From the NCBI GenBank assembly GCA_000165425.1, contig CT868108.1:248001-312000 (forward strand): a DNA stretch of 64,000 bases, read 5' to 3'. The DNA is from Paramecium tetraurelia. Its lineage: Eukaryota. Both the position numbers and the translations under genes were made by a program. The notes under the pieces were generated by a model. That model saw only the letters and a program-made list of their open reading frames with translations, searched no databases and was not told the origin of the DNA. The number at the start of each line of letters is the position of its first letter. Positions within the stretch are counted from its first letter, which is position 1. Positions 45,819 to 62,447 of this stretch are shown in pieces.

Positions 45819-46111
45819 ATTTTTTAAATTATTTAATTTAATGAATGATGGTTAGATTAAAATACTCAAATAGAAGCATTTTATAAATATATACATAAGG
45901 TATAATTTAATAAATAGAATTCCTCTAACTCAAAAATAATATTTCATTAAATCTCTTCTATTCTATGGTATTTAAAGTGAAGGATCTCAAGTATATAGAT
46001 GGGGGCATTGAGTTCGTAATATAAAATGATTTAGATAAAGAAGTGTATTTCATTCTTGTACATTAATCTAAATACCTGTTCAGAATGTATCAGAGGTAAT
46101 TATTTAATTTA

Positions 46112-49100
46112 ATGTTCTTTTCACATTTAACACCACATACAGTGGCATCGCTTTAAGGCACAAGAATTTAGCAGCTGCATCCAGCAAAAGACTCCAGTGG
46201 TTTAGCAATTGCAAATGTATGCTTCAGCGAAGGCGTTCATTATTGGGAAATCGTATGCCCTTTTAATACGGATGGAGTGAAAGTAAGGCGTAGTCCTAAT
46301 TGCAGATTGGCATATCCAAATAGTAATCTCCAAGCGAAAACTTTGAGGGACACCTATTCGAATTTAAAACGACAACTCAGAGAGTAGTGGGTGTGCTTCT
46401 CAATTTCAACGAGTAATCACTGTAATTCTACTTGAATGGCAATCTGAGTACTAACAAAGGCATACCAAAGGGCAGTCTGATTTCATGTCCTTGGTACCCT
46501 TGTGTTAGATTATCGCAATTTGGCAATTCGGTGTATTTGACAATGAAGTATGAGGATCGCAGTGTCGTAGAGCATTGCGAATAAGTTCAGCTTGAGACCT
46601 AGTAATCGTAGCATCCAAATCCCTTCTTCTTGATTAATAAGTATCTATAATATGATATAGATAGAAATGAAATTCATCAATTGCAAGATCGATTAGTGTC
46701 AGTTCGAAATTGTCCTTTGGTTGGATAACAGATTCCTAAGGCAGATTTAGATGTACTAATAAAGATGAAGTTGGTGATCTGCGATTATCATGACCAGAAT
46801 GAGATAGTATATTTAATTTTGAATGAAGAAACATCACAAAAACTTAAAAGGGTAAGACAATATTTAAAACATCATGTGAGGAAGTTGAAGGAGAAATTTG
46901 AGAGCAAACCATAGGAGAAGGAAAAAGATTAATTGTTGCAGGAGATCACATAGATGTTGCCAAATAACGAGGAAATAGTGTAGGAAGAAAAAAAGGATGA
47001 ATTTGAATACAAATATTCAATAGAACTATGCAGAATAGCCGATAGAATAATTGTTTAATTGATAGAATAATTTGAAGAGGTCAGAAGTATTGAATCTGCT
47101 AAGATGAGATTGTAAACATTTGTTGATCATCCTGCTACAGATAATCCATTTAAAGTTGTTGAATATGGAAAATACTTACAACCAGGTTCAGGAGTCAAGT
47201 ATGCATATTGTGATAATGACATCAACAACAATGGAACCAAACATTCGAAATTAATATTGCGAAGTGAAATACCTGCATAAGGCTAAATAATCCCATGCAA
47301 AAGTGATCGCTATTTCTCATTGAGGAATTAAGATCGATTAACCATTTACAATGGAGAAGCAGAACTATTCAAAGTCATTGATGTAGATTTGAGACAATTG
47401 GGACCATATCAAAAAAATATCAAGGTAATAGATGTCCAATAGGAGGAAACACCCAGTCACATATATAAAATATTGGAAAATTATATTATTGGGGAAACCG
47501 AACAATTGCCATTATATGATCAAACAATACTTGAGAAGTTGATCAGAATGGGTTTTGAGGAATCAGATTGCAAAGAGGCACTTATACAGACTAATAACAA
47601 TTTTGACAAAGCACTCGACATTGTAAGTAGAACCACTGGAGAATGGCAATGCAAATTCTGTACTTTGGTCAATAAAGAAACCAATCAAATTTGCGAGGCT
47701 TGTGAAGGTCCAAGACCAGATGATTCATAGGAAGAAGAATTTCTTATTAAATAACCATTGCAAATTTAATAAGATTTGGTGGAAGTGGATTAAAAGGAAG
47801 AAATTCATTAGGAATTTAAAGATAAAATCACTGAAAGCACTATCAATCATGTCTCAGTTATTCATTGGGATAGTAATAATACAACATTTCCAATATTAGT
47901 GGCAAGTGTTCATAATAAAAATATACTCTCTATTAAATTCATATCATATTCCTAAAATTATTTGGATCAATTTTTTATAAATGAGGATGGCTATTATTGT
48001 GTATTAACAAATTGTTGGAGCAAAAACAAGGATTACTCATTATTATTGCAATCTGAAACAAGTCGATAAATAGTTGAGACTCTGGCTCCTCTGTATAGTA
48101 AACATTGCAAAAAGTTAGAGATGAATCTAGTTGATCATAAAGCAATTCAATTAGAATATGAGATTAAAGCTATTGATAGTGCTATTTGGAATAATAGACT
48201 CTATGTTTTTTTGATGGGTGACTAAGCATTAAACATTTATGAAATCACTTAAAACTCTAAAATTGAACTTTAGAAATAGATCTTCATCGGATCTGATTAC
48301 AATCTCCTCATTTCCAAAACCAAATGTCTAATTTATAGTCAGTCAAAAAATTTGATTATCAATTCTCAATTAAATGTCTCTGAAATATAAGAACCAATTT
48401 CAAATGCATATATTAAAGATAATATCATCTGCTATGAAAGTAACACCCAACACAAGTAAATTGAAGACAACTCTGAAATCTTAGAGAATAATATTATTCA
48501 AAGTGAGGAAGTGTAGATCTTCTAAACTGTTACTGATGATGTTCACAGTTAGAAATTCTAAATTGCTGATAATTACACTCACATCCACGTCAAAGCTGTT
48601 TTTGAAGGACCCATTGAAGAACCCAAATAAATTCCATTAATGAACAGTCCCTTAACAGTGAGTGATCCTTAAAAATTACCTTTAACTGTCCATTCATTCA
48701 AAGGTGCCTCCTTTAATGATTAAACTTTTGTTACTTAAATGCTCTTTGATAGTAATAAACCCTTCTCAAGCAATTATCCAAACACTTAATTTATATTCAG
48801 AAGTCAATTTGATGAAATTATGCTCGTGGACCATGTTAGAGTTAAAAGTGAGATCACCAATGTCTTCAGAGGATTCCCCATTGGAACTGGATTGATCTTT
48901 ACTTCAAAAGAAGAGCATGAGTTGAATGACACTTCAGAATTTGATTATTTTGATAAACAACAATATGAAAAATGGAAATCAACTCATTAAAGTCTCTTTG
49001 CAAATCAACCAGTAGGGTACTTTGAATTTGAAGGAGACTCAAAAGAGGCTCTATGCAAATTGGAAGTTATACGACCATGCAAATATTTAATGCTTAAACC

Positions 49101-52100
49101 AACGAACTTTAGAAAAACACCTCATGATCATACAGCACATATTTAAACTAACTCCGTTGAAATCAAAGGTTTTGCTGCTTACGGAATTGAAATTCCCAAG
49201 AGTTAAATTGAAAATTCAACTTTTGGTACAATCTCAGACTGCTAATTATTAACCTAACTTAGAAAACGAATTGATCTACCAGATAAATTGATTGTTTAAT
49301 GTTAATATTAAGGAATAAATGGGTACCCAAGCAATGGTATTATTGAATTTGATACTGTATTTTCAGGAGATTTTATTATCAAACCATATGAAGATTAAGA
49401 ATATAAATTATTAAAGGTGACAGTGACAGGGAAAAAATATAATAATTTATATATCAATCAATTAGATAACCTAATAGAAGAGGTATATCAGAAAAAACCA
49501 GGGGCTTTGAGTGTTCTTAATTTATTCATGAAGAAAGAATCCAAAAAAGTATTAGAAATCATTAGTTTATCTAAATTTATTCTTGGAAATGTGTTGTCTT
49601 AGAATGTAAATGAATAAGTAACAGAATTCTTCAGACATCTCTAATAACACGATGAATTTCATGATATTTTATTGTAAGTGGCACAACAGATACTAAATAA
49701 GATTGAAAAAGTAGTTTTGACAGAAAGTGGTTTAGAATACTTTTTAGGATTGTTAACTTACACAGCCAAATTTAAAACACAAGAAATCACAGATCTGGCT
49801 ATAAAATCTTTATTGCTTGCTTTACAAAAGTTGAAAACAATTGAACACAAAGATATGTTCTTATTTTCAACCAAATACGGAGGTCCTCAAGGATAAGTTC
49901 AAATCTAAGAAATCGATGAAAAATAGATTGAATAGAATGGTAACTAGAAAACCTTGATATGCTAAAAGGATCCTCTGTCTTAGATTCTAATTATGCAATT
50001 GTCAAATAAGTAATAGATTAGGAGATTTGAAGTCAATCTTCTTGGAGAATTTGAAATTGAGAAATTGTCCTTAAGATTTCAATAGACATCCAATTCAGTC
50101 AAATTTAGAGTACAAGTTTGGGTAGACAATTTAGTATTAGATTAAGTTTATGATGAATGGACCTTTGTGTAATTCACTGATTATGTTCATAAGAGTGCTA
50201 ATTACAACAATTACAATTGCTTACACATTGGACTCAATAGAATTAGAGCTCGTAAATTATTGGTGCAATTAACTTTGGGAAGTGATAATTATTACTCTAA
50301 ATAATCAGTTTAGCTATAGATCCCATAGAATTACTTAACCATCATTCCAGAATTCTATGGATCTCTTTTGAATGCTGAATTAAGTCCATTAGAAATTACT
50401 GAAGATTTCAGATTTAAGAATACCTTATCATTAGGTGAATCCCTTTATTATGTCTATTAATCAGATAAATCTATACTCATGGACTCATACAATGTTTATA
50501 AAAAGACTGATTTAACTGATCATTACATAGTGATGTCAACTAAATCATTAAGGAGAAATGCTGATTATCTAGAACAAGCGATTTACAAATTGCAATCAGA
50601 AATGCAATTAAAAGAAAAAAGCAACCTACAAACAAATCACCTTTAAAATCTAATTGAATAAACTCAATTAGAATTTTTGAAAGTAGCACCCCCTAGAAAC
50701 TACGAAAACAATTCCAATTTCTTAACAGTATTCTCATCACTTCTGTTGAGAATGCTTATTGCTATCTCTGGCACAGTACCTGATGTATTAGAATTCATAA
50801 AACTTATCATATCACTGGGAGATATGAACGGAATTACTGATTTGGCTTTATAATTCATTCAAAAGAAAGTTAAAGACTAAATTCCTGAAGAACAATGGAA
50901 CGAATTGATTATAGGATAATTTACAAGTCAAAATGCTCTAAAGAAAAAGCTATTGCATTAATTGCCAATCCCAATATTGGAATCATTATAGAAATTAATT
51001 GAATTAAAAGATGATGTGCTTTATGACGCATTAGTAACACAACTATAGAGAATTCCACAGTAAAAATATACCGAAGATGGAAATCCAGATAATGAAAAGA
51101 TTTTAACTTTGATTTTTGAATTTCTTATCAATGATACTAAGTTTAGATTAAAGCTATTGTAAAATGCATTGCCAAAATGTACTGCTCTCTAAATAAAGAA
51201 TTCATTAAATGAAAAGATCCTAACAGATATATTTTCAAGGGGAATATCATAGCCAGAGAAATTCAAGTTTCTGTTGGAGATGCTCTTATAACCAAGACAA
51301 TTGGAAAGTAGATACACAGATTGGGCAGCTACACTATAATTGAGTGATCAAATAAATAAGACTTTATAAATTGAGAAGGATAGTTTGATCTATATATCAA
51401 AATACATAATATACTTCTGTTAAATCTACATAAAAGAAAATGTTGAAAAATTAAGCATTGATAATTTGTTATTGTTATTTGATTTTCTGACGAAGAGTGT
51501 AAAGAAGGTAAACAAATTGAAAACTAGAGAAACCAATAAACAGTTAACTGATTTTGAAGACTTTTTGTAAAGATAACACATTTAAATATGTTATCCAGAC
51601 ACAATAAATAGACTGATCCAATTATTAGAGAAATCAGAGAATTACCTAGCTTGGAATAAGGTATTGAAAGTGATATTGATGATAACACCTCAATTGCAGA
51701 ATGAACTACAAATTTATCAAAGGGTTATCCAATCATATTTAGGATGCAAATAGAAGTTGTTGATGAATGAGTTACTCTAATTCACTCTTAATTTAGCATA
51801 ATAATAAGTACAATAAAATCAGACATGTTCGCAAATTATCGATGCCTTATTACCACATCTGGGATTAAATGAAATAAACCATATCTTCATAGTATTCTCC
51901 TAAGATGTATAACACATCTACTTGAATAATGTTAATATTCTACTCAAATACATAGGCATGTATCTACCATATTAAGGAGGAAAGGATGGCATCATTAATG
52001 CTGACAGTCAAGTGATTCAATAACTAGAACTCTGTTAATCGATGATCTACTTACTAGTGCAAAGTGAGTAAACCTTACCATAACTAAAGGAGAGTCCGGA

Positions 52101-55100
52101 TTTGAATAATTTATTCGAATGGTTTTGTTTGAATTGTTATTCTGGAAAACAGATACATTCATATGCTGGCTAATTACTTGAGTGGATGAGTGAATCATTA
52201 GATTAACTCTTTGAATTGTTACCATGCAAATAATACATCTTAAAATAATTATTCAAATAGCAATACTACATAGATGATGTGATAACTAAACAGTATGAAA
52301 ATAATTAGATCACTTCATATACTGCATTTACATATACAACTCAGATTTTGGAAGTGATTCAATCACAATTTGATAAGTATTTAACTTCAGATGATGTTGC
52401 ATAGCAATTCTAATCAGATATCTATCATTACCTAATAAATAAGATCATATAGGAGAAACAAATTACATAGGTCTAATTTTTAGAAGAAGAATTTGGCAAT
52501 AAAATGAAGGTTTTCAATTTGCCAGGCCAAAATGTGTCTAATTAAGATTGGCCATTGCACAAGAAAGGAGCAAAGAGTAGATTAGCTCTTATTACTCTAC
52601 CCTAGGGAATGAGAAGTGAATATCAAATGGTCTTCTAATTCGATAATGAAATCGAAATCAAAAATATTAGATTGGGCATTTAAACATTTACTGCAGATTT
52701 TACAGACAAATAATTAGGTACTCCAAGCAGTATCTTACTAGAAGTAGGCAAATCACTAGAAGAACTATACCCAATTGCTGAAATGCAATTAGTAAATGAC
52801 GAGCATTATTCGCAATATTAAGTCAAAGTCTTTTGCTATAATTCTCAGGTCATGAATAAGTAACAATTACCTTCTGGACAATCTGTGAAATTCATAAGTT
52901 TCAGAATGAGATAACAATATGTGGAATAATTGGACACTACTAGAACTATGAAAAAGCTGTGTTTGGGTATCAGTTTTATTTCTGTTATTGGATACAGTGC
53001 AATTCGATAAAAGGTTGATTTCATTTACACATTGTAAGAGAAGACTGCAATCGAAATTCTATCCAAATTCTGTAAGCCCAATTATCAGAAGACATTACAA
53101 TAGTTAGCCAACGATTCCATAGTATTGGAATAACTCTAAAATAATATTGATAAGTTCATGAATGCTCTTAATTCCTATTCATTTTAATTAAGTCCTTTGA
53201 TTTTAGCAATTGCTAAATATAATCATCAGGTTGGAGATTGGCTTGTAATGAAGTTGATGGAATACCCTGAATAATCACATAGTAAATTACTAAGTCAAAT
53301 TATATTGGAAGGAGAACATGTTCATGAAAGATTCCTGAAATTACACAACCATCTATTTGAAAAACTCTTGGCTCTCCAAATTAACAATCATCAATAATAA
53401 GATCTATTGTGGTATGAAAAATTAGCTCAACATTTCATTGAATCTTATTGCAATGTTCTTTTATTACAAAATAGCAAATTGAAATAAAGAGAATTATCTT
53501 TAAATATTAATAAAAATGACATAATACATTTAATCGAATTGTTTTAATTGATGCATAACAAACACGCTAGACATTTGCTTATCAAACTAATAGTCACAAT
53601 CACTTATCTACCACATCCTTATTAATAAATTGAAGAAGTTGAATAGATCCTGTAATTCACTTTGGATAAGAGTAGAACCTAACCATATTTCCTTGAAGTT
53701 CTTGGACCCTTGTCATTGGGTAACAAAGTAAGTATTGGATGGATTGTGAATCAATTGGATTAAATTTTTGATAAATTTGATTTGAACTCTGTTATTCCAT
53801 TCTTTTATACTCTATCGACCAATAAAAAGATTGCTGATCATTTACTCAAATATCTTCTCCCTCTATATCATTTGTTAATAGAAGAACCGACAAGCAAGAC
53901 AATCTTGAAATAATTAGATGATAAAACAATTGAAACAGTGGCTAAATTCATAAGTTATATGGTATAGAAGTATCATGCAAAATTCATCATTGAAGCTTTG
54001 ATTCGAGATATTGGCAGATTGGAAGGAAATAAAGATATGAAGTTTGTGAGATCCTTGTTGGTTCCTATTTTGAACAGTGAAGATTATGTGTTTTTGAAGA
54101 TTCAATTTGAAGATCAAGGCAGATATATTTTGGACCCAAAGTTGATTGCTTAAAAAAGGATTGATAATACCTAAAAGTAAGACGAAGTAGTTTTTGAATC
54201 ACAATTACTAACAATAAAGTAAAAAGATTAATTGTTTGCTCATTTAACTGAAACCTATTGGAATAAGGTGGCTTATTAGAAAAATGATGGAGATTCTGAT
54301 ATTTTACCACACTTAGAAGATAAATTCTTTAATTCTACTCCCTAAATGATGGTTATTAACTATAAAATCAATAATACAGACAAAACTATTATTTTATATC
54401 ACAATGAGAAATGCATAAAATAAGACAAATCAGATTTAGCATACTCTTGGAATCAAGGGAAGTTGAAAGTATACTATTTCAATGAGAATAATTTAATTGT
54501 CAATGAGGAGATCGACCTGAATGCCTTCATTGAAATATATGATGAGTAAGGTACCTTAACCTTCTAAAATAATGATAAGGCGTTCTTAGAATTAGAATAT
54601 GTGGCAGGAGAACCCTCAAGAATCAATTTAACATCATTAAATCTAAAAGATTAGGGAATAATAGACAATTTAAAGATTGAATACTATGTCTCTGGAGTTA
54701 GACCTTAAAAATAAAAGAAAGCATTGCCATAAATCAATATCCCACAAGAGACTATCAGTTAAATATTCCCTAATTATGAGACTAATTAATCATTGTAATA
54801 CTATAGTGCTGTTCCAGTTTACTAATTGCCAAGTTAGCTAAAACTAAATGAATTGAAATAATTGATAGTTTTCAACAAGTATGGATTAAAATAGGAATGC
54901 AATATATTTGAAAAATAGACAAAATTGTGTGAGTTACCTACAAATGAACTAAATATTATTGAGCTAGAAGTCAATGCAAGAGACTTCATAGATAATATCC
55001 AACCCAAGACATTAACATTCACATATCCATAACAATTAACAATATTCCCCTTATTTGAAGAAATGAATGGGGTAAATGCTATGTTATCAGTAATTAGAGA

Positions 55101-58100
55101 AGGAATTGGATTATGGAAGAATTAATAGAGAGCAAATGCTTGGCTATAATTCTTGAATGAATTGCAATCATTTTGTTAATTGCCCAATTTTTTCAATTTG
55201 TTTATGAAGAACCAATTATGTGTAAATCTATTGTTTGATTTAATTGCCGGACCCCCAGACTCAAACAATTAGAAATTAGAAGAGGAAGAATAAAATGCTG
55301 TTAAGTTCATCTACACTACATTGGTTAGCGTATTCAGTGCTAGTAGTGGACCAGAAGTAAGAATAAAGGCTTTGGAATAGAATTTAATCAAATAAATCTT
55401 AGACCGAATAGCTTTGGTTAGTAAGGAGACTAAGAGAGTATTTAGAAATGTGCTTGAAAAACAAGTGGTATAAGAATCACCTCAGAAAAATAACACATTG
55501 CAGAAATCAACAAAATAGAAGAGAGGAGTGGGATATGCAAGTGATAATACTGGATAAAATTAGAAATGGAACACCATAGAATATGTGGAGAAGAAAACAT
55601 AAAAGTCATAACAATTAATTGGTTTATTGGGTATAGTAGAGTCATTCTTTGATTTCCAACATTGGCATCCAAGTGAAGACCTATTACATAAATTAAAGAA
55701 CACCTTATTTGAAAGTGCATTATTGCCTTTGCTAGAAAGTGCATTCAGAAGTGGCTCACTTTTGGAAATATCAAAAGAATTCGATTTGTATTGCAAGTAT
55801 TTGAAGATAGTTTAATCCATGTCTCATCATAAAGTATTGGCCGGTGTTTTCTTAAAGATACCTGAGTAGTATTATCCTCCTCAAACTTAATCATTATTTG
55901 AATTGTTAAGTGCTTTGGCAGATACATCCAAAATCTTTATGAATTGCATCTAAAATAATAGAAAGAAGAATGAAGAAGAAGAGCACTCATTTGAGATTGC
56001 CAAAATGATTATAGATACTCATAAACGAATGGAAAATTGCATCAATAAAATGAATGATAGTGGTAGTAGTAGCAATGAAGAGGACGAGACTGAATAACTC
56101 AAGAAATAGAAAGAACTAGCAAATGAATTAATCTAATAGATTCTATCCAAATAATTACCTGAAGCATACAGAACCTTGTTGTCAGACTTGAGATTCAATT
56201 ACATTGATATGAAGGTTGGTGGCAGATATAAACATCATTACTCAGGCAACATATCAACCTAAATAAATCAAGATAAGATCGTAAGATTAGCCTAAGAATT
56301 TGCAGATATGTCAACATCCTTACCAATTGAACACACGAATGCCATATTTGTAAGAGCTGACAAAGAACGTGTAGATGTAATGAAAGCATTAGTTATGGGT
56401 GCAAAAGGTACTCCTTATGGACATGGTGCATTTCTATTTGATATTTATGCTGATGATTCATATCCGAATGCTCCCCCTAAAATGAATTTATCTACTACAG
56501 GAAATGGAAAAGTCAGATTCAATCCTAATTTGTATAGTTGTGGAAAAGTATGTTTGTCACTCTTAGGTACATGGAGAGGAAATGCTTCTGAAAATTGGGA
56601 TCCAAAAATCTCTACTCTCCTTTAAGTTTTAGTATCCACCCAAGCCATTATTATGAGTGAAGAGGTGTATTTCAATGAACCAGGCTCTGAATAGGAAGCA
56701 AACACAGATGAAGGTGAAAAGAGAAATGAAGGATATTCTAATATTGTCAGATATTGCAACATCAAATATGCTATGATAGACTAAATTAGAGATCCACCAA
56801 AAGGATTTGAAACTATTATTAAAAGACACTTCTATCTCAAAAAATAGGAAATCTTGGAGGAATGCAATAAGTGGGTTGAACTTGCAGATACAAAAGAAGC
56901 TTTATATACTGGGTTACTAAATGATCATAATTCCAGCTGGTGTAGTGAATTCAAAAAGAGCAAGAAAGCATATCATAAGAAGTTGTCTGAAGCTGTTAAA
57001 GAATTGGAGGAAGAATTGAATAAAATTTAACCACCTTCTGCTGCTGATTTAGAAGGATCCAGAGTACTAAGGACTCATGTCAAGAAACAACCTAAAGTTA
57101 AAAATCTAAAAGAGGGAATGGCCAATTTGGATGAAGTAGATGTTACATACACAAAGATCTAATAGAAGGAATTCGAAGCAAATGATGAAAATGTCTTAGA
57201 TAGATGGAGTAGATACATAGGTGCTATGGGAATGGATGCAGTGAAGAAATAGGCAAATAGTTGTGTTTTGGTATCTGGCATTGGAGCTTTGGGTATTGAA
57301 GTAGCCAAAAATATAGTATTATCAGGAGTCAAAATGCTAACAATTCATGATTAACAAAAAAGCACTTAATTTGATCTTAATGGGTAGTTCTTCATTGAAG
57401 AAAAAGATATTGGCAAGAACAGAGCTGAAGTTAGTTGGGAAAAATTGCAATAGCTCAATTCATATGTCAGAGTAAATTATGAAACATCAGAACTCCTTAA
57501 TATCGACTTCACTAAATACAACATTGTAGTAGTCTGTGCTACATATCCAAATGATGTATTATTCAAATTATCAACATTATGTCGTTAACACAAGGTCAAA
57601 TTAATTATTAGTTCAGTTGATGGAGTCTTCGGAAGAGTGTTCAATGATTTTGGATAGTCTTTCATTGTTGAAGACAAGAATGGGGAACAAACTGTTGATT
57701 ATATTGTTAAATCTGTTACTGATAAAGGGGAAAATAAGTTGCACTTTGAAATCACAGGTAAACATGAATTTTAAGATAATGATGTTGTTATGATTGATAA
57801 TATTGAAGGAATGATAGACTCAAATGGAAATTCAATTAACAAAACCATTTAAAAGGTCAAAGTAATTAGTAAATCAATCTTGGAGATTCAATTAAATGGA
57901 TATTCAAAATACATTCGAAATGGAACTATTAAATTGGTTAAAGTACCTGTTGAATTATCATTCCACCCCTACAATCAAGAATTCATCGATAAACCAATTT
58001 ATGATCCAAATATGTCAGAATACGATTTCATCAAATTGTAAAATACTGAACAACTACACAGTCTTTATAATAATAAATAGATCAAGGATGAAAATTTCGA

Positions 58101-60170
58101 ATTGTTATTCAAACATTACTCAATTTTAGGAGAGTTCTCACCTTTGTCTGCTTATCTTGGAGGCTTCGTCTCACAAGAGGCCATCAAGGGAATAACTAAT
58201 AAATTTACTCCAGTTTAACAACTATTCTATGTGGATTGCACAGAAGTATTATAAAAAGAGATATCCAAAGATGTCAAAGTCAGTGAAAGATCTTTAAGTA
58301 GATTCTTGGGTACAGAAATTGCTGAAAAATTAGAGAAATCTAAAATATTCATGGTTGGATGTGGTGCAATAGGTTGTGAATTACTCAAGAATTTTGCCAT
58401 GCTTAATTTAGGAATAAAAGGTTCAATCACAATAACTGATCCAGACCATATTGAAGTTAGTAATCTAAATAGGTAATTCTTATTCAGGGAAAAACACTTA
58501 AGAAAACCTAAGTCTTAGACAGCAGCTGCTGCAGTCATTTAAATGAATCCGTATTTGAGAGATCACATCATAGCAAGACTAGATAAGGTTCATGACTCAA
58601 CAGAACATATATACACAGATCAGTTCTTTGAAGATCAAGATATCATTGCTAATGCTCTAGATAATGTAGCTGCTAGAAGATATGTAGACAAACGATGTGT
58701 TAATTCTCGTAAGCCACTATTGGAATCTGGTACTCTTGGACCAAAAGGTCATGTACAATGCATCGTTCCATTTTAAACTGAATCTTATGGCAGTTCTAAT
58801 GATCCTGTAGAAGAAGGAGAAATTCCATATTGCACACTCAAGATGTTCCCTGAAGAGACTTTCCATTGTGTCGAATTTGCAAGGGATAAATTTGGCAAAC
58901 ATTTTTCAGCAAGACCAAAATAATTAATAAAAATGATGGCTGAAGATTATATCCCCCAGTTTAGAAGATAATAAACCTTTTAAGAGAGGCTATCAAATTG
59001 TTTAAGAACAAACCAAACTCCTTTGAAGATTGCATTAAGTGGGCAAGAGGAAAGTTCTAGAAATACTTCATTAATGACATCAAATAACTAATGTATACAT
59101 ATCCAGAAGATGTTAAGACCAAGGATGGAAATCTGTTTTGGACTATGCCTAAACGTCCTCCCAAGCCTATTTAATTTGATCCTGAAAATGAAATTCATCA
59201 ATAATTTGTATCTACCTTTGCTTTTCTCAGAGCCAAAATGTTCAGTCTTTAAACTGACAAAGATTGGAGAACTAAAACTTATAGATAATCAGTAGCTAAA
59301 CAAGCTAATCTAATCACCTTCCCTGAATGGCAACCAAGTGAAGAAAAGAAGAAAGTATTTATATATTTAATAATAATTTTAGTCTATTTCCGATAAGGTT
59401 AAAGAGCAAGGATAAAAAGAAGAACCTGAAGAGAATGAGACTACTCAAACCCAAAGCACTTAAGAGGAAACACAATTGTTATTTAAATAATTTAAATCTT
59501 TATTGCCAATCACTTTAGCATCTGATGAATTTGAAAAGGATAATGATTAAAATGGACACATCGATTTCATACATTCCTTTGGTAATTTAAGGGCTGCAAA
59601 TTATAAACTGGAACCCATGGATTGGCTAACTGTGAAAATTAAAGCTGGTCGTATTGTGCCTGCTTTGGCTACTACCACTGCTGTTGTTGCTGGACTATAG
59701 ACAATAGAATTAATTAAAACTTTGAAGAATGTATAGATTTCAGACATGAAAAACGCTTTTGTCAACTTAGCCATTCCCTTTGTGAAATTAACTGAACCAG
59801 GTTTGGTACCCAAGAAGAAAATCAATGAAAAAGTCACTGTTACGTTATGGGATATATGGACACAAGAAATTACAAAGCAAACTACTTTCAGATAGTTGTT
59901 TGAGATTCTGAATTAATAATATGATTTACATCCAAGAGATGTGTTTTTGAAGGCTTAACCTGTGTATATGGAAATAATGTATGCGAAAAAGGCAGAAGAG
60001 AAAAAACACTTTTTGGGACCAAGCAATCATTAAAGTATTAGAAATACAGGTATAATATAATGTTATTTTTTATTAGAAATATGTTGGATTTGACTATCAA
60101 TTTTACATTAAATTAGGAGAGTTAAGAAATTATCAAGGGAATTCCGTAAGTCAGATTGGTTTTGAAGTGA
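46112..60170 (+). CDS. Giant E2-E1 fusion: SPRY - UBA - NZF - BIRC6/BRUCE-like body and UBC - UBA6-like ubiquitin-activating enzyme
   Basis: One frame runs from 46306 to ~58958: track ORFs 47473, 49417, 49678, 55627, 56308 and 58543 are co-frame, and no in-frame TGA was found in the stretches read codon by codon. [23 protein letters not shown] (Cys 56551); E1 [30 protein letters not shown] (Cys 58831), [13 protein letters not shown]. Confidence 0.92.
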
Positions 60171-60226
60171 TATCAATATTTTATCAAAATATAAATCATA
60201 AAATATTATTTTCTTATATTTATGAT

Positions 60227-61353
60227 TCAATATCTCTGTTGTTGGAAATAGTTATCTTCCAATTCATCAATAAATGTGAAATAGGCAATCACAGCAGTAA
60301 TATCATCGCAACCAAATTTCAAGTATGGCAAATCACCAATCTTTGAGTTTGTCTTCTTTTATTTGTTCATTTCATCCCATCTGGATCTGCATTCAGTAAC
60401 CTATATAAATATCAATATCTACAATAGCTTCAGCCACACTCTCTTTTGGCTCATGTTTCAAGACAAATCCACAGACTTCAGCACTACTCATCACATCCCA
60501 AACACCATCTGATCCTATAACCATAAACTTGTCCTATTTTGTTAATTCAATATGTTGGACTTCTGGTTCTGAAATCAAGCCTATCTTCTTAGCTTGCAAA
60601 TCTCCCAATCTATAACTAATTTGAATTTCAATACGTTCTAGTCATGGCAATTCCTGGCCCCTCATCATCTGCCCAAATACGATATGGACCAACTGGCTAA
60701 CCATCATGTATTAGCCTTTCGATTTTGCCTCCACATTCTTATGATTCTCTCCTTCTCATCTGGTCTTGTTGGCTTATGAATCATATGATAATTCAATGGC
60801 CCAGTTTCTCTTTTGCAGTTTATCTAAATAGTACTGCTCTGGAATCACCCAGATTAGCAATGTAACACATATTCTTAACTACAAATATTGATATTGCACA
60901 TGTTCCAGAATTACTGTAATCTATACCAGAAGATCTGAGTTTTGCTTCAGCATTTTTAAAAGCACTCTTCAAAAAACTCTCTCTTTGTTTATCATTCTAT
61001 AATGCCTTGATTCTCTTTGGGTTTTTCTCCAAGAATGTCTAAATATAATCATTGGCTGCTTAGGATGCTTCTTTGCCTGAGGAACCATGACCATCATACA
61101 CTTATAATAAAAATGAAGTTAAACCTGCAAAGAAATAACAATCTTCAGTAAATCTTTCCATAGTACAATAGGAATCTTGACATTCAGTCTTTTTGGGACC
61201 ATATCCCATCTTTGAATGTCCAAATAATTTGATTTCCTTCATGGGATTTATCAAAGTCTTGTTGAGATTCTACACCACATTTTACTTCTTCTTCTTTTTC
61301 TTGTTCTTGCCACTCTAATTGCTATTACCTCCAAACCAATTAAGAAGAAACAT
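60227..61353 (-). CDS. Protein phosphatase 2C (PPM family)
   Basis: ECQDS, FAVYDGHG, SGTCA, ANLGDSRAV, GIAMTR-LGD, GSDGVWDV, DDITAV; three apparent single-base insertions at 60740-60803. Confidence 0.92.
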
Positions 61354-61387
61354 TTATATTTATATATATTTAAATTATTTATTAAAA

Positions 61388-62447
61388 ATGCTACGATTTA
61401 TTTATCAAGGATTCTCAACCTTAGTAAAATAAAATCCACTTAAGAATGGGTTCAGATTTGAGAATTAAAATCTCACCTGGACTTTCGGCGAATTCGATGT
61501 ATTCAATAGTTGTTATTGAGAGACACATTCAAGTGCATTCGCATATGGATTGATTGAACAAGGTTGGAAACAAGGAGACAAGCTTTTGCTCTTGCTTGGT
61601 AGATCCAACACCAGTGAGGCAGCCACTACATTTGCTGGAGCAGCCAAAGCTGGAGTAATTACAGTACCATTCAGATCCAATGATCCAAATGAAATTGAAA
61701 AGACTATTAGTATTGTCAATCCAAAGGGAATTGTGTTTTCGCCCAATCAACTCGTTGGAGAAACCAAGTTCATCGAAGTCCTCAAAACCCTTGTTCCTGA
61801 AACAACTTAGAGTATCTATTAAAATTAATTTGCCCTCTAGCTCACTCAGGAGAAAGTCTGAAGAGTAGTAAATTTACTAATTTGAAATGGTTGATTCATA
61901 CTGGATTCTATTCATACCCAGGAACTTACAAATTCAGAGTATTAAACTATTGAAGCCACTAGGAATCATTGGTTTACGCCTCCAGGAACTTCAATCGTCT
62001 TTCTCTCCCAACTGTTACAGGACCAGTCACAGCTCAATTGAGAAATGGATAACTCTAAACCTACACTTATTAGGACTTAGCGAAATTGAGTGACAAAGTG
62101 CAGGGATCTAAACATGTCATTGTCTCTGGAGATCCATAAACTGTAACCAACTTCAGCATTGGTAAGTTCAAGGATTTCTAATATCGTAGTTGTCGGAGGA
62201 TTGGAAAGAGGTTACAATACAGTTTTGACAGGCGCAGACAAATTAACCAAGGTCTAAAAGATTCTACAATATTATGACAATTATAGTTTGGTAGTAGATG
62301 ATTCAGTTCTCAGTGAATAATAATAAGTATGATGAACTTTTAATATCCTTGTAGTCTGTTGATGTTGGCAACCTTTAAAATTTATTCACAGTTGGCGATG
62401 TCACAAAGGCTCAAAATGTATTCCAAAAATAAGCCATCTAAATTTGA
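61388..62447 (+). CDS. Truncated AMP-binding (acyl-CoA synthetase-like) protein, probably mitochondrial
   Basis: MLRFIYQGFSTL presequence-like start; WTFGEFD...FAYGLIEQGWKQGDKL...AGAAKAGVITVP is an ANL N-terminal subdomain; about 310 aa. Confidence 0.7.

Follow-up and report, generated by a model that had tools for sequence, protein, structure and literature searches.

The locus

The window analysed here is a stretch of 64,000 nucleotides of Paramecium tetraurelia DNA (contig CT868108.1, positions 248,001 to 312,000), and the gene of interest lies at 46112..60170 on its plus strand, like all the features described below unless stated otherwise. This gene encodes a giant protein in which a ubiquitin-conjugating enzyme (E2) resembling BIRC6 is followed, in the same polypeptide, by a ubiquitin-activating enzyme (E1) resembling UBA6. 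Its limits are given by the open frame, by identity to the public protein P0122 in the exons and by the models of the orthologues P0123 and P0124; the stop codon is a TGA at 60168-60170. The first-pass annotation of the window had seen in this fusion a possible "Rosetta stone" for the partnership of UBA6 with BIRC6.

The AT-rich DNA of the window reads open only when TAA and TAG are taken as sense codons. Under translation table 6, a single open frame (46030..60093) runs over 4,687 codons, of which 247 are TAA or TAG, and the removal of four tiny introns and four one-base assembly insertions leaves a protein of about 4,650 residues. P0122, a public P. tetraurelia protein, is identical to the window in every exonic part, and over the main tblastn segment the orthologues from P. 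sonneborni and P. pentaurelia share 87-89% identity with the window gene, which by sequence comparison identifies the window as Paramecium macronuclear DNA.

Intron 1 (46283..46305, 23 nt, GT..AG) appears as a change of frame between the tblastn segments of P0122, P0123 and P0124, and intron 2 (46641..46664, 24 nt), which is in frame, as a gap of eight residues in these three proteins relative to the raw translation. Nearer the 3' end, public sequencing runs were compared with the window over 58800-60300 for frame changes and splicing. RNA reads cross the joint of intron 3 (59355..59382, 28 nt), where 18 and 6 reads of run X24 form loose ends, and for intron 4 (60050..60076, 27 nt) the RNA contig of run X18 has loose ends at 60049 and 60087. 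Four single letters of the assembly, at 58953 (in a run of C), 58978 (in a run of T), 60015 (in a run of G) and 60086 (a G), are missing from read-based contigs: the contigs of DNA runs X4 and X2 have none of the four, the RNA contigs of X18 lack the first three, and a loose end of X18 shows the fourth. Removing these letters restores a translation that matches the orthologues. The apparent frameshifts between 58950 and 60090 are four one-base insertions in the assembly, and the fused gene is intact and transcribed, with introns 3 and 4 spliced.

Two other readings of the frame changes were discarded. A 26-nt intron at 58959-58984 had been considered for the change near 58955, where DNA and RNA contigs are colinear with the window and one letter shorter; true frameshifts in the C-terminal ubiquitin-fold domain (UFD), near 60015 and 60086, were rejected on the same kind of evidence, independent contigs being colinear and each one letter shorter. 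Each of the runs that cover the gene shares a fraction of only 0.91 of the sampled words, which fits the presence of assembly insertions. The public model P0122 reads straight through the insertions, so that part of its second catalytic cysteine half-domain (SCCH) contains wrong residues and its C-terminus is wrong and truncated; neither E1_4HB nor E1_UFD appears among its precomputed Pfam domains. Last, P. tetraurelia has a second copy of the gene, P0125, which is 91% identical (its model has 2,601 residues) and is probably the whole-genome-duplication twin of the window gene. Run X24 contains many RNA reads with differences from the window at constant positions; these may come from this copy.

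Domain organisation of the fused protein

On the open frame, Pfam finds in this order a UBA domain, a RanBP2-type zinc ribbon, the UQ_con domain, the first catalytic cysteine half-domain of E1 (FCCH), two ThiF stretches, the SCCH and a weak UFD. The UBA domain lies at 47518-47622 (E=9.5e-09) and the zinc ribbon at 47638-47721 (Zn_ribbon_RanBP, 26.6 bits, just under the cut-off of 27), and the extreme N-terminus contains a weak SPRY-like stretch (SPRY E=0.007, below the cut-off). Further downstream, hhalign and BLASTP delimit a block that is homologous to the C-terminal part of BIRC6 (55165..57045), composed of a helical region and of the extended catalytic domain of the E2 (UBC); it includes the Pfam UQ_con core (residues 3419-3559, 56284-56706) and, within the UBC, the codon of the E2 catalytic cysteine (56551-56553). 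A linker that keeps the same frame without any stop (57046..57177) connects the extension of the UBC to the E1.

According to Pfam and to the orthologues, the E1 module (57178..60170) is complete and canonical, with an inactive adenylation domain (IAD), FCCH, a four-helix bundle (4HB), an active adenylation domain (AAD), SCCH and UFD. ThiF is detected over two stretches with E=3.1e-76, E1_FCCH with E=2e-09 and UBA_E1_SCCH with E=2e-20, and the orthologues additionally carry E1_4HB and E1_UFD (PF09358). The characters of a canonical ubiquitin-type E1 are all found: two ThiF-fold domains, the GxGxxGCE motif, FCCH and SCCH with the cysteine of P-x-C-T-L-K, and a UFD. The segment 58300..58950, delimited by motif reading and alignments, covers the AAD and the start of the SCCH; the codon of the E1 catalytic cysteine is at 58831-58833, within the catalytic segment 58822-58854. 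The UFD (59887..60170), which by alignment is of the short UBA6 type and has the motif KYVDLTINF, scores only 18.1 bits in the raw frame (the cut-off is 25) because of two of the assembly insertions; the region can nevertheless be aligned along the entire UFD.

In an alignment of 19 fused proteins, the catalytic segment of the E2, with its cysteine and the FNPNLY motif, the nucleotide motif of the E1 (G-x-GAIGC, in the window VGCGAIGCE), TDPD, KGH and the E1 segment C-TLKMFPE with its catalytic cysteine are all invariant. That the catalytic segments of both modules are so conserved suggests that selection acts on both the E1 and the E2 activities.

A ciliate-wide family

In P. tetraurelia, the window gene represents a family of giant E2–E1 proteins that is ciliate-wide. 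A search limited to long proteins scored 1617 candidates, of which 142 had E<=0.001; among the 120 of these that were listed, at least 77 contain both ThiF and UQ_con. When the E1 part alone is the query, UQ_con accompanies the E1 domains in 38 of the first 44 rows. The named carriers are four Paramecium species, two Tetrahymena species, Pseudocohnilembus, Moneuplotes and Platyophrya macrostoma, all of which are intramacronucleate ciliates, and both UBC and E1 are present in the EukProt records of Platyophrya that derive from transcriptomes (P0177 and P0086). The Paramecium fusions form two old groups of paralogues, about 54% identical to each other, those of Tetrahymena fall into three size classes, and across the family the linker between E2 and E1 has about 45-90 residues. 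No named heterotrich fusion is among the matches listed, which is weak evidence given the word filters of the search.

The E2 part

In a ranking of every solved structure, the UBC scores highest with human BIRC6 (236.8 bits) and Drosophila BRUCE (212 bits), followed by UBE2O (127 bits) and UBE2Z (102 bits), the other E2s reaching at most 42 bits. A UBC placed outside BIRC6 had been named beforehand as the outcome that would speak against the Rosetta-stone reading; this structure ranking gives the opposite result. The alignment to BIRC6 spans 225 residues and includes the N- and C-terminal extensions of the domain. The similarity extends further, since BLASTP gives 29% identity to BIRC6 over 617 residues, and the profile of 15 ciliate proteins matches that of 12 animal BIRC6 (residues 4122-4776) with a hhalign probability of 100% and E=1.3e-87 over 587 columns, so that homology reaches about 370 residues upstream of the UBC. 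The tryptophan of the blocking loop (W4673 in the numbering of PMC12999496) is conserved in the ciliate UBC.

Four matches of the N-terminal scaffold to BIRC6, each insignificant (P0123 residues 307-411, 1164-1239, 2155-2408 and 2540-2652), occur in the order of BIRC6 and upstream of the strong match; there are hints, in the sequence, that the whole scaffold may be homologous to BIRC6.

The E1 part

The six motifs that had been noticed in the E1 part are all in frame under the ciliate code, at 58354-58893: VGCGAIG (58354-58374), TDPD (58435-58446), KPKS (58504-58515), ARRYVD (58672-58689), (P)KGH (58741-58752) and ARDKF (58879-58893). The same frame (46030..60093) reads CELLKNFAM from 58375 and ESGTLG from 58723. 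The comparisons made in the first-pass annotation proved accurate: when aligned, human UBA6 (PDB 9YKV, chain A) has vgcgaigce, tdpd, kpks, arryvd, kgh and ardkf, and the primate UBA1-clan protein P0121 has VGAGAIG, TDMD, KLKS, ARMYMD, KGN and ARDEF. The free UBA1 of Paramecium octaurelia (P0500) reads VGAGALG, TDDD, SNKA, ARKYID, KCN and ARDYF; like P0121 and the free UBA1 of Tetrahymena thermophila, it differs from the fused E1 at six motifs out of six.

The value of these motifs as signatures of UBA6 was judged from a survey of 79 E1s (18 fused, 26 UBA6-like and 35 UBA1). The strongest marker, and a nearly diagnostic one, is KG[H], the histidine being present in 18/18 fused and 25/26 UBA6-like E1s, against an asparagine in 33/35 UBA1. 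Three other motifs lean in the same direction: the proline of K[P]KS is found in 18/18 fused and 20/26 UBA6-like E1s (UBA1: S in 9, M in 8, P in 6), the lysine of ARD[K]F in 12/18 and 17/26 (the three most frequent UBA1 residues being E in 8, L in 5 and Y in 4), and the second arginine of AR[R]Y in 12/18 and 11/26 (UBA1: L in 21, K in 5, M in 4). The claim does not carry over to the last two motifs, which are weak across the family. The cysteine of G[C]G occurs in just 6/18 fused proteins (A in 8, S in 3) and in 15/26 UBA6-like E1s (UBA1: A in 29, S in 6), and the proline of TD[P]D is present in 18/18 fused but only 3/26 UBA6-like E1s, 19 of which have N (UBA1: M in 26, D in 7).

Profiles of the two clans were trained on half of the UBA1 and half of the UBA6-like rows, chosen at random, and scored against the remaining rows, in three splits. 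The score with the UBA6-like profile minus that with the UBA1 profile averages +104 bits for the fused proteins, and 54/54 of their scores (18 proteins in 3 splits) are positive; among the held-out controls, positive scores were obtained in 0/54 cases for UBA1 and 38/39 for UBA6-like E1s. The signal comes from the AAD, the SCCH, the C-terminal piece of the AAD and the UFD. Similar results are obtained with solved structures: the best match of the segment 58300..58950 is human UBA6 (275.5 bits), before yeast Uba1 (257.7 bits) and human UBA1 (250 bits), and the C-terminal exon gives 116 bits with human UBA6 versus 86 with human UBA1. In 27 unbiased columns that separate the clans, the majority residue of the fused proteins is in the UBA6-like state in 9, in the UBA1 state in 3 and in another state in 15.

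Clan-specific insertions and deletions are clearly in the UBA6-like state in four cases out of six. One of them is an insertion of five columns in the UFD, occupied in at least 70% of UBA1 rows and absent from the UBA6-like rows and from every fused row; fused and UBA6-like E1s also have in common a UFD strand YVDLTxxF. The UFD is reported to be the main determinant of the UBA6–BIRC6 specificity in mammals, and the helices of the UBA1 UFD, one turn longer than those of UBA6, to clash with the UBC of BIRC6 (PMC12999496). The short UFD of the fused E1 agrees with the shorter UBA6 helices described in that work.

For the phylogeny, a scan of 1.8 billion representatives was reduced to 150 diverse E1s, and the key rows were named from cluster look-ups. 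The row of the window E1 used in trees and profiles is 8 residues short and contains two X, with no material effect. In a FastTree of 175 rows, the fused clade has 34 rows (support 100), the UBA1 clan 98 (100) and the UBA6-like group 39 (88), four rows being unplaced. The UBA6-like side includes animal UBA6 and the choanoflagellates Savillea and Salpingoeca, the amoebozoans Balamuthia, Planoprotostelium, Cavostelium, Phalansterium, Pyxidicula and Dictyostelium, and also Mantamonas, Fabomonas and the metamonad Anaeramoeba. The IQ-TREE analysis under LG+G4 (49 rows, 987 columns) gives 100/100 both to the UBA1 clan and to the fused clade; the ciliate UBA1s belong to an alveolate group of the UBA1 clan that is itself supported at 100/100, and the fused clade is nested among UBA6-like rows with weak internal support. 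The same picture is obtained in a tree of 32 rows calculated with LG+C20 and posterior mean site frequencies (PMSF), where the UBA1 clan without the fused clade is supported at 100. An approximately unbiased (AU) test rejects a clade of fused and ciliate UBA1 sequences (log-likelihood difference 301, p=0.001). The fused E1 is firmly outside the UBA1 clan, and the placement inside the ciliate UBA1 clade that had been put forward as the second unfavourable outcome was not observed. A protein cluster search with the E1 returned generic E1 clusters only (scores <=0.83), and Antonospora is the one named organism among ten UBA1-clan representatives that were looked up.

Free UBA1 in ciliates

Free UBA1s were found in Tetrahymena, Stentor, Blepharisma, Platyophrya and P. 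octaurelia (P0500, P0415, P0405, P0406, P0410, P0414, P0416 and P0513; P0415 is from Tetrahymena thermophila). A check for a free UBA1 beside the fusion had been suggested: there is one in the aurelia complex, as seen in the sibling species P. octaurelia, whose P0500 has 1,032 residues. The free enzymes of T. thermophila and P. octaurelia occur in the same organisms as the fusion and have the same E1 domain set, but they are encoded by separate genes, for about 1,030 residues, they lie on the alveolate branch of the UBA1 clan, and they differ at the six motifs.

The named ciliate UBA1s were reached via a metagenome locus that uses the ciliate code, L003. On this contig is a gene for a free UBA1-type E1, with larger introns and a separate N-terminus that starts with a methionine; at about 1100-1900 the contig has a GC-richer stretch that gives an odd reading in every frame. 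P0310 and its AT-rich relatives were dropped as candidate ciliate UBA1s, the nearest metagenome locus (L001) having no in-frame TAA or TAG.

Origin and function of the fusion

We consider it probable that this ciliate family joins a BIRC6-family E2 to a UBA6-like E1 in a self-charging E1–E2, or perhaps E1–E2–E3, enzyme, and that it is the Rosetta-stone record of a pairing, that of UBA6 and BIRC6 in mammals, which predates the split between ciliates and animals. The fused E1 is no copy of the housekeeping UBA1 of ciliates and appears to belong with the UBA6-like E1s. That mammalian BIRC6 is charged by UBA6, as stated in the first-pass annotation, agrees with PMC12999496, which reports that the charging is exclusive. 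The simplest account, in our view, is that a UBA6-like E1 and a BIRC6-family E2 were already cooperating when an ancestor of the intramacronucleate ciliates inherited them, that they were fused in this ancestor, and that UBA1 stayed beside the fusion as the general E1. The fusion is in itself only circumstantial evidence that the fused E1 prefers E2s of the BIRC6/UBE2Z type.

In the mechanism that we envisage, the C-terminal E1 would first adenylate ubiquitin and form the E1~Ub thioester. The UFD, being of the UBA6 type, would then dock the UBC of its own polypeptide or that of a dimer partner, ubiquitin would move to the cysteine of the UBC, and the scaffold, with its UBA, zinc-ribbon and SPRY-like parts, would bring the substrate.

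Several observations weigh against this interpretation. Regarding the mechanism, we infer each step of the transfer that starts with adenylation and ends at the substrate, the nature of the modifier and the cis or trans route from conserved residues and from what is known of E1-to-E2 transfer. Regarding the E2, a Pfam scan of the window protein at E<=0.01 finds neither a BIR domain nor the Pfam BIRC6 domain (PF12356), two domains that are listed for animal BIRC6 (PF00653 and PF12356), and hhalign gives only insignificant matches between the N-terminal scaffold and BIRC6 (probability <=2.3%). For these reasons we describe the E2 part, from its sequence, as a giant E2 of the BIRC6 family, short of a demonstrated orthologue of BIRC6. 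In addition, the positions of E4603 and E4604, two loop residues of human BIRC6 that are reported to matter for UBA6 specificity (PMC12999496), are occupied by K and E in the ciliate UBC. Regarding the E1, the profile test is not fully independent, because the clan labels of unnamed rows came from the first tree (FastTree). The profile means are neutral for the IAD (+0.8), the FCCH (+2.9) and the 4HB (+4.0), and the N-terminal 593 residues of the E1 score higher with human UBA1 (439.9 bits) than with human UBA6 (383.4 bits). The fused clade is only weakly sister to Mantamonas (30/94 with LG+G4, 85 with C20). The trees are unrooted and contain no outgroup, and moving the fused clade to the boundary between UBA1 and UBA6-like rows costs only 1.1 units of log-likelihood (AU test, p=0.48); since this topology is not rejected, the UBA6-like characters of the fused E1 may be ancestral states that UBA1 has lost. 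It is for the same two reasons, the unrooted tree and the boundary placement, that we regard a strict orthology of the fused E1 to UBA6 as likely and go no further.

The ancient and dedicated UBA6–BIRC6 pathway proposed in the first-pass annotation therefore stands in part: the exclusion from the UBA1 clan, the BIRC6-type UBC and the UBA6-like profiles are in its favour, and the unrooted tree, the neutral N-terminal third of the E1 and the lack of a BIR domain are not.

The alternative that survives best places the fused E1 either in an old lineage of its own, the third beside UBA1 and UBA6, or as sister to all of the UBA1 clan, its likeness to UBA6 being made of retained ancestral residues and a short UFD, which the stem of UBA1 changed; the fusion would then tell nothing specific about UBA6. 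The boundary topology, which has the fused clade and all UBA1 on one side of a branch, speaks for this hypothesis, as do the N-terminal third of the E1, which is not UBA6-like, the long stem of UBA1 (0.20-0.30) and the position of the UBA6-like rows near the centre of the tree. We nevertheless find it unlikely. With all three tree methods the fused clade falls within the UBA6-like assemblage, away from its base; a lineage of such age that survives in ciliates only requires losses in every other sampled group, whereas a UBA6-like E1 is already present in Metazoa, choanoflagellates, Amoebozoa, Mantamonas, Fabomonas and Anaeramoeba; and the partner in the fusion belongs to the very E2 family that UBA6 serves in mammals (PMC12999496).

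It is very improbable that the fused E1 is instead a fast-evolving duplicate of a ciliate or alveolate UBA1, captured by the E2 gene, with motifs that arose by convergence. The stem of the fused clade is long (0.40-0.58), so that a long-branch artefact is conceivable, and the amino-acid composition of several rows departs from the model; but the AU test and the exclusion of the fused clade from the UBA1 clan in both the LG+G4 and the C20 trees stand against this hypothesis, as do the insertions and deletions, which agree with UBA6, and the free UBA1s of Paramecium and Tetrahymena, which are unlike the fused E1 at every motif. Least credible of all is the idea that neighbouring giant-E2 and E1 genes are read as one where only TGA stops translation: long open frames come easily under table 6 (even the out-of-frame stretch 58959-59354 is open) and gene callers split some metagenomic copies (P0199 and P0003, on one contig of 24,801 bases), but the 19 aligned proteins, which come from several ciliate classes, have UBC and E1 in a single frame and joined by a conserved linker, both parts are present in the database proteins counted above, including the transcriptome-derived ones of Platyophrya, and the fused E1 lacks the methionine-led N-terminus of free E1s such as that of L003.

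Returning to a UBA6-like E1 fused to its E2, a broader scenario can be drawn, which we hold only tentatively. The UBA6–BIRC6 axis would not have arisen in animals and would be a dedicated second route of ubiquitin charging that dates approximately to the last eukaryotic common ancestor; its UBA6-like E1s would survive in Amorphea, CRuMs, ancyromonads and Metamonada, and in ciliates it would have been built into single-chain E1–E2–E3 machines and multiplied, to two or more old paralogues in Paramecium and three or more size classes in Tetrahymena.

Relation to known systems

Like animal BIRC6 (BRUCE/Apollon), including the human protein, the ciliate fusion is giant and has an extended UBC preceded by a helical region, in which the catalytic cysteine, the NPN motif and the tryptophan of the blocking loop are conserved; the partner of BIRC6 is UBA6, and the fused E1 is likewise UBA6-like with a short UFD. 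The differences are that E1 and E2 are in one polypeptide and that a UBA domain, a RanBP2-type zinc ribbon and a SPRY-like stretch replace the BIR and Pfam BIRC6 domains. Unfused giant E2s that resemble BIRC6 also exist in other protists (Thecamonas P0202; P0200, P0201 and P0203, which have ZZ and SPRY domains; Hondaea P0241). Their UBC is 42-49% identical to that of the ciliate fusion, and P0201 also has in common with it part of the region before the UBC and the SPRY-like stretch; unlike the fusion, none of the five has an E1 module listed.

With UBA6 (UBE1L2) and the UBA6-like E1s of protists, the fused E1 shares its side of the 100/100 split and the motifs KGH, KPKS, ARDKF and YVDLTxxF; it differs from UBA6 by the attached E2, by its long stem branch and by an IAD and FCCH that have no UBA6 likeness. 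FAT10, the second substrate of UBA6, is a vertebrate protein.

The E1–E2 fusions that we found in the literature are bacterial. In Cap2 (from CBASS), E2 and E1 activities are in one polypeptide, as in the ciliate fusion, and the E1 part is described as a non-canonical, ATG7-like adenylation domain that serves to conjugate cGAS-like enzymes (PMC12355090). By this description, what sets the ciliate protein apart is that its ubiquitin E1 is complete, canonical and pseudo-dimeric, with FCCH, SCCH and UFD. A full-text search found no paper on a eukaryotic E2–E1 fusion or on a ciliate BIRC6, older comparisons of the E2 fold and of the E1 superfamily being outside its coverage, and the ciliate proteins are already public as uncharacterised entries. 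The ciliate fusion would be the first eukaryotic counterpart found to the bacterial ones, an earlier description being possible. A UBC–E1 fragment of about 1,300 residues should be able to charge itself, which would make it a compact system for studying the transfer from E1 to E2, in cis or in trans, and the role of the UFD.

For the origin of UBA6, recent reviews give either chordates and echinoderms (PMC12355090) or the common ancestor of animals and fungi (PMC11354881), and structural work from 2025 deals with the priority of BIRC6 on UBA6 as a metazoan matter (PMC12999496). UBA6-like E1s are found beside UBA1 in Dictyostelium purpureum (P0259), Anaeramoeba flamelloides (P0307), Mantamonas plastica (P0053) and Fabomonas tropica (P0302). 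This distribution is much broader than a chordate–echinoderm or opisthokont origin as given in these reviews, and contradicts it. The ciliate fusion and the UBA6-like E1s of Amoebozoa, Mantamonas, Fabomonas and Anaeramoeba argue for a far older partnership.

Last, we note three minor observations. UBA6 is reported to have been lost in Arthropoda (PMC12999496). Two proteins named UBA6 by NCBI, from Limulus (a horseshoe crab, P0322) and Chamberlinius (a millipede, P0312), fall inside the animal UBA6 group of the FastTree, so that this loss is not phylum-wide. Downstream of the fused gene, a neighbouring gene on the minus strand (60793-61404) encodes a PP2C phosphatase domain (E=6.8e-14). The strand of the RNA reads flips at about 60228.

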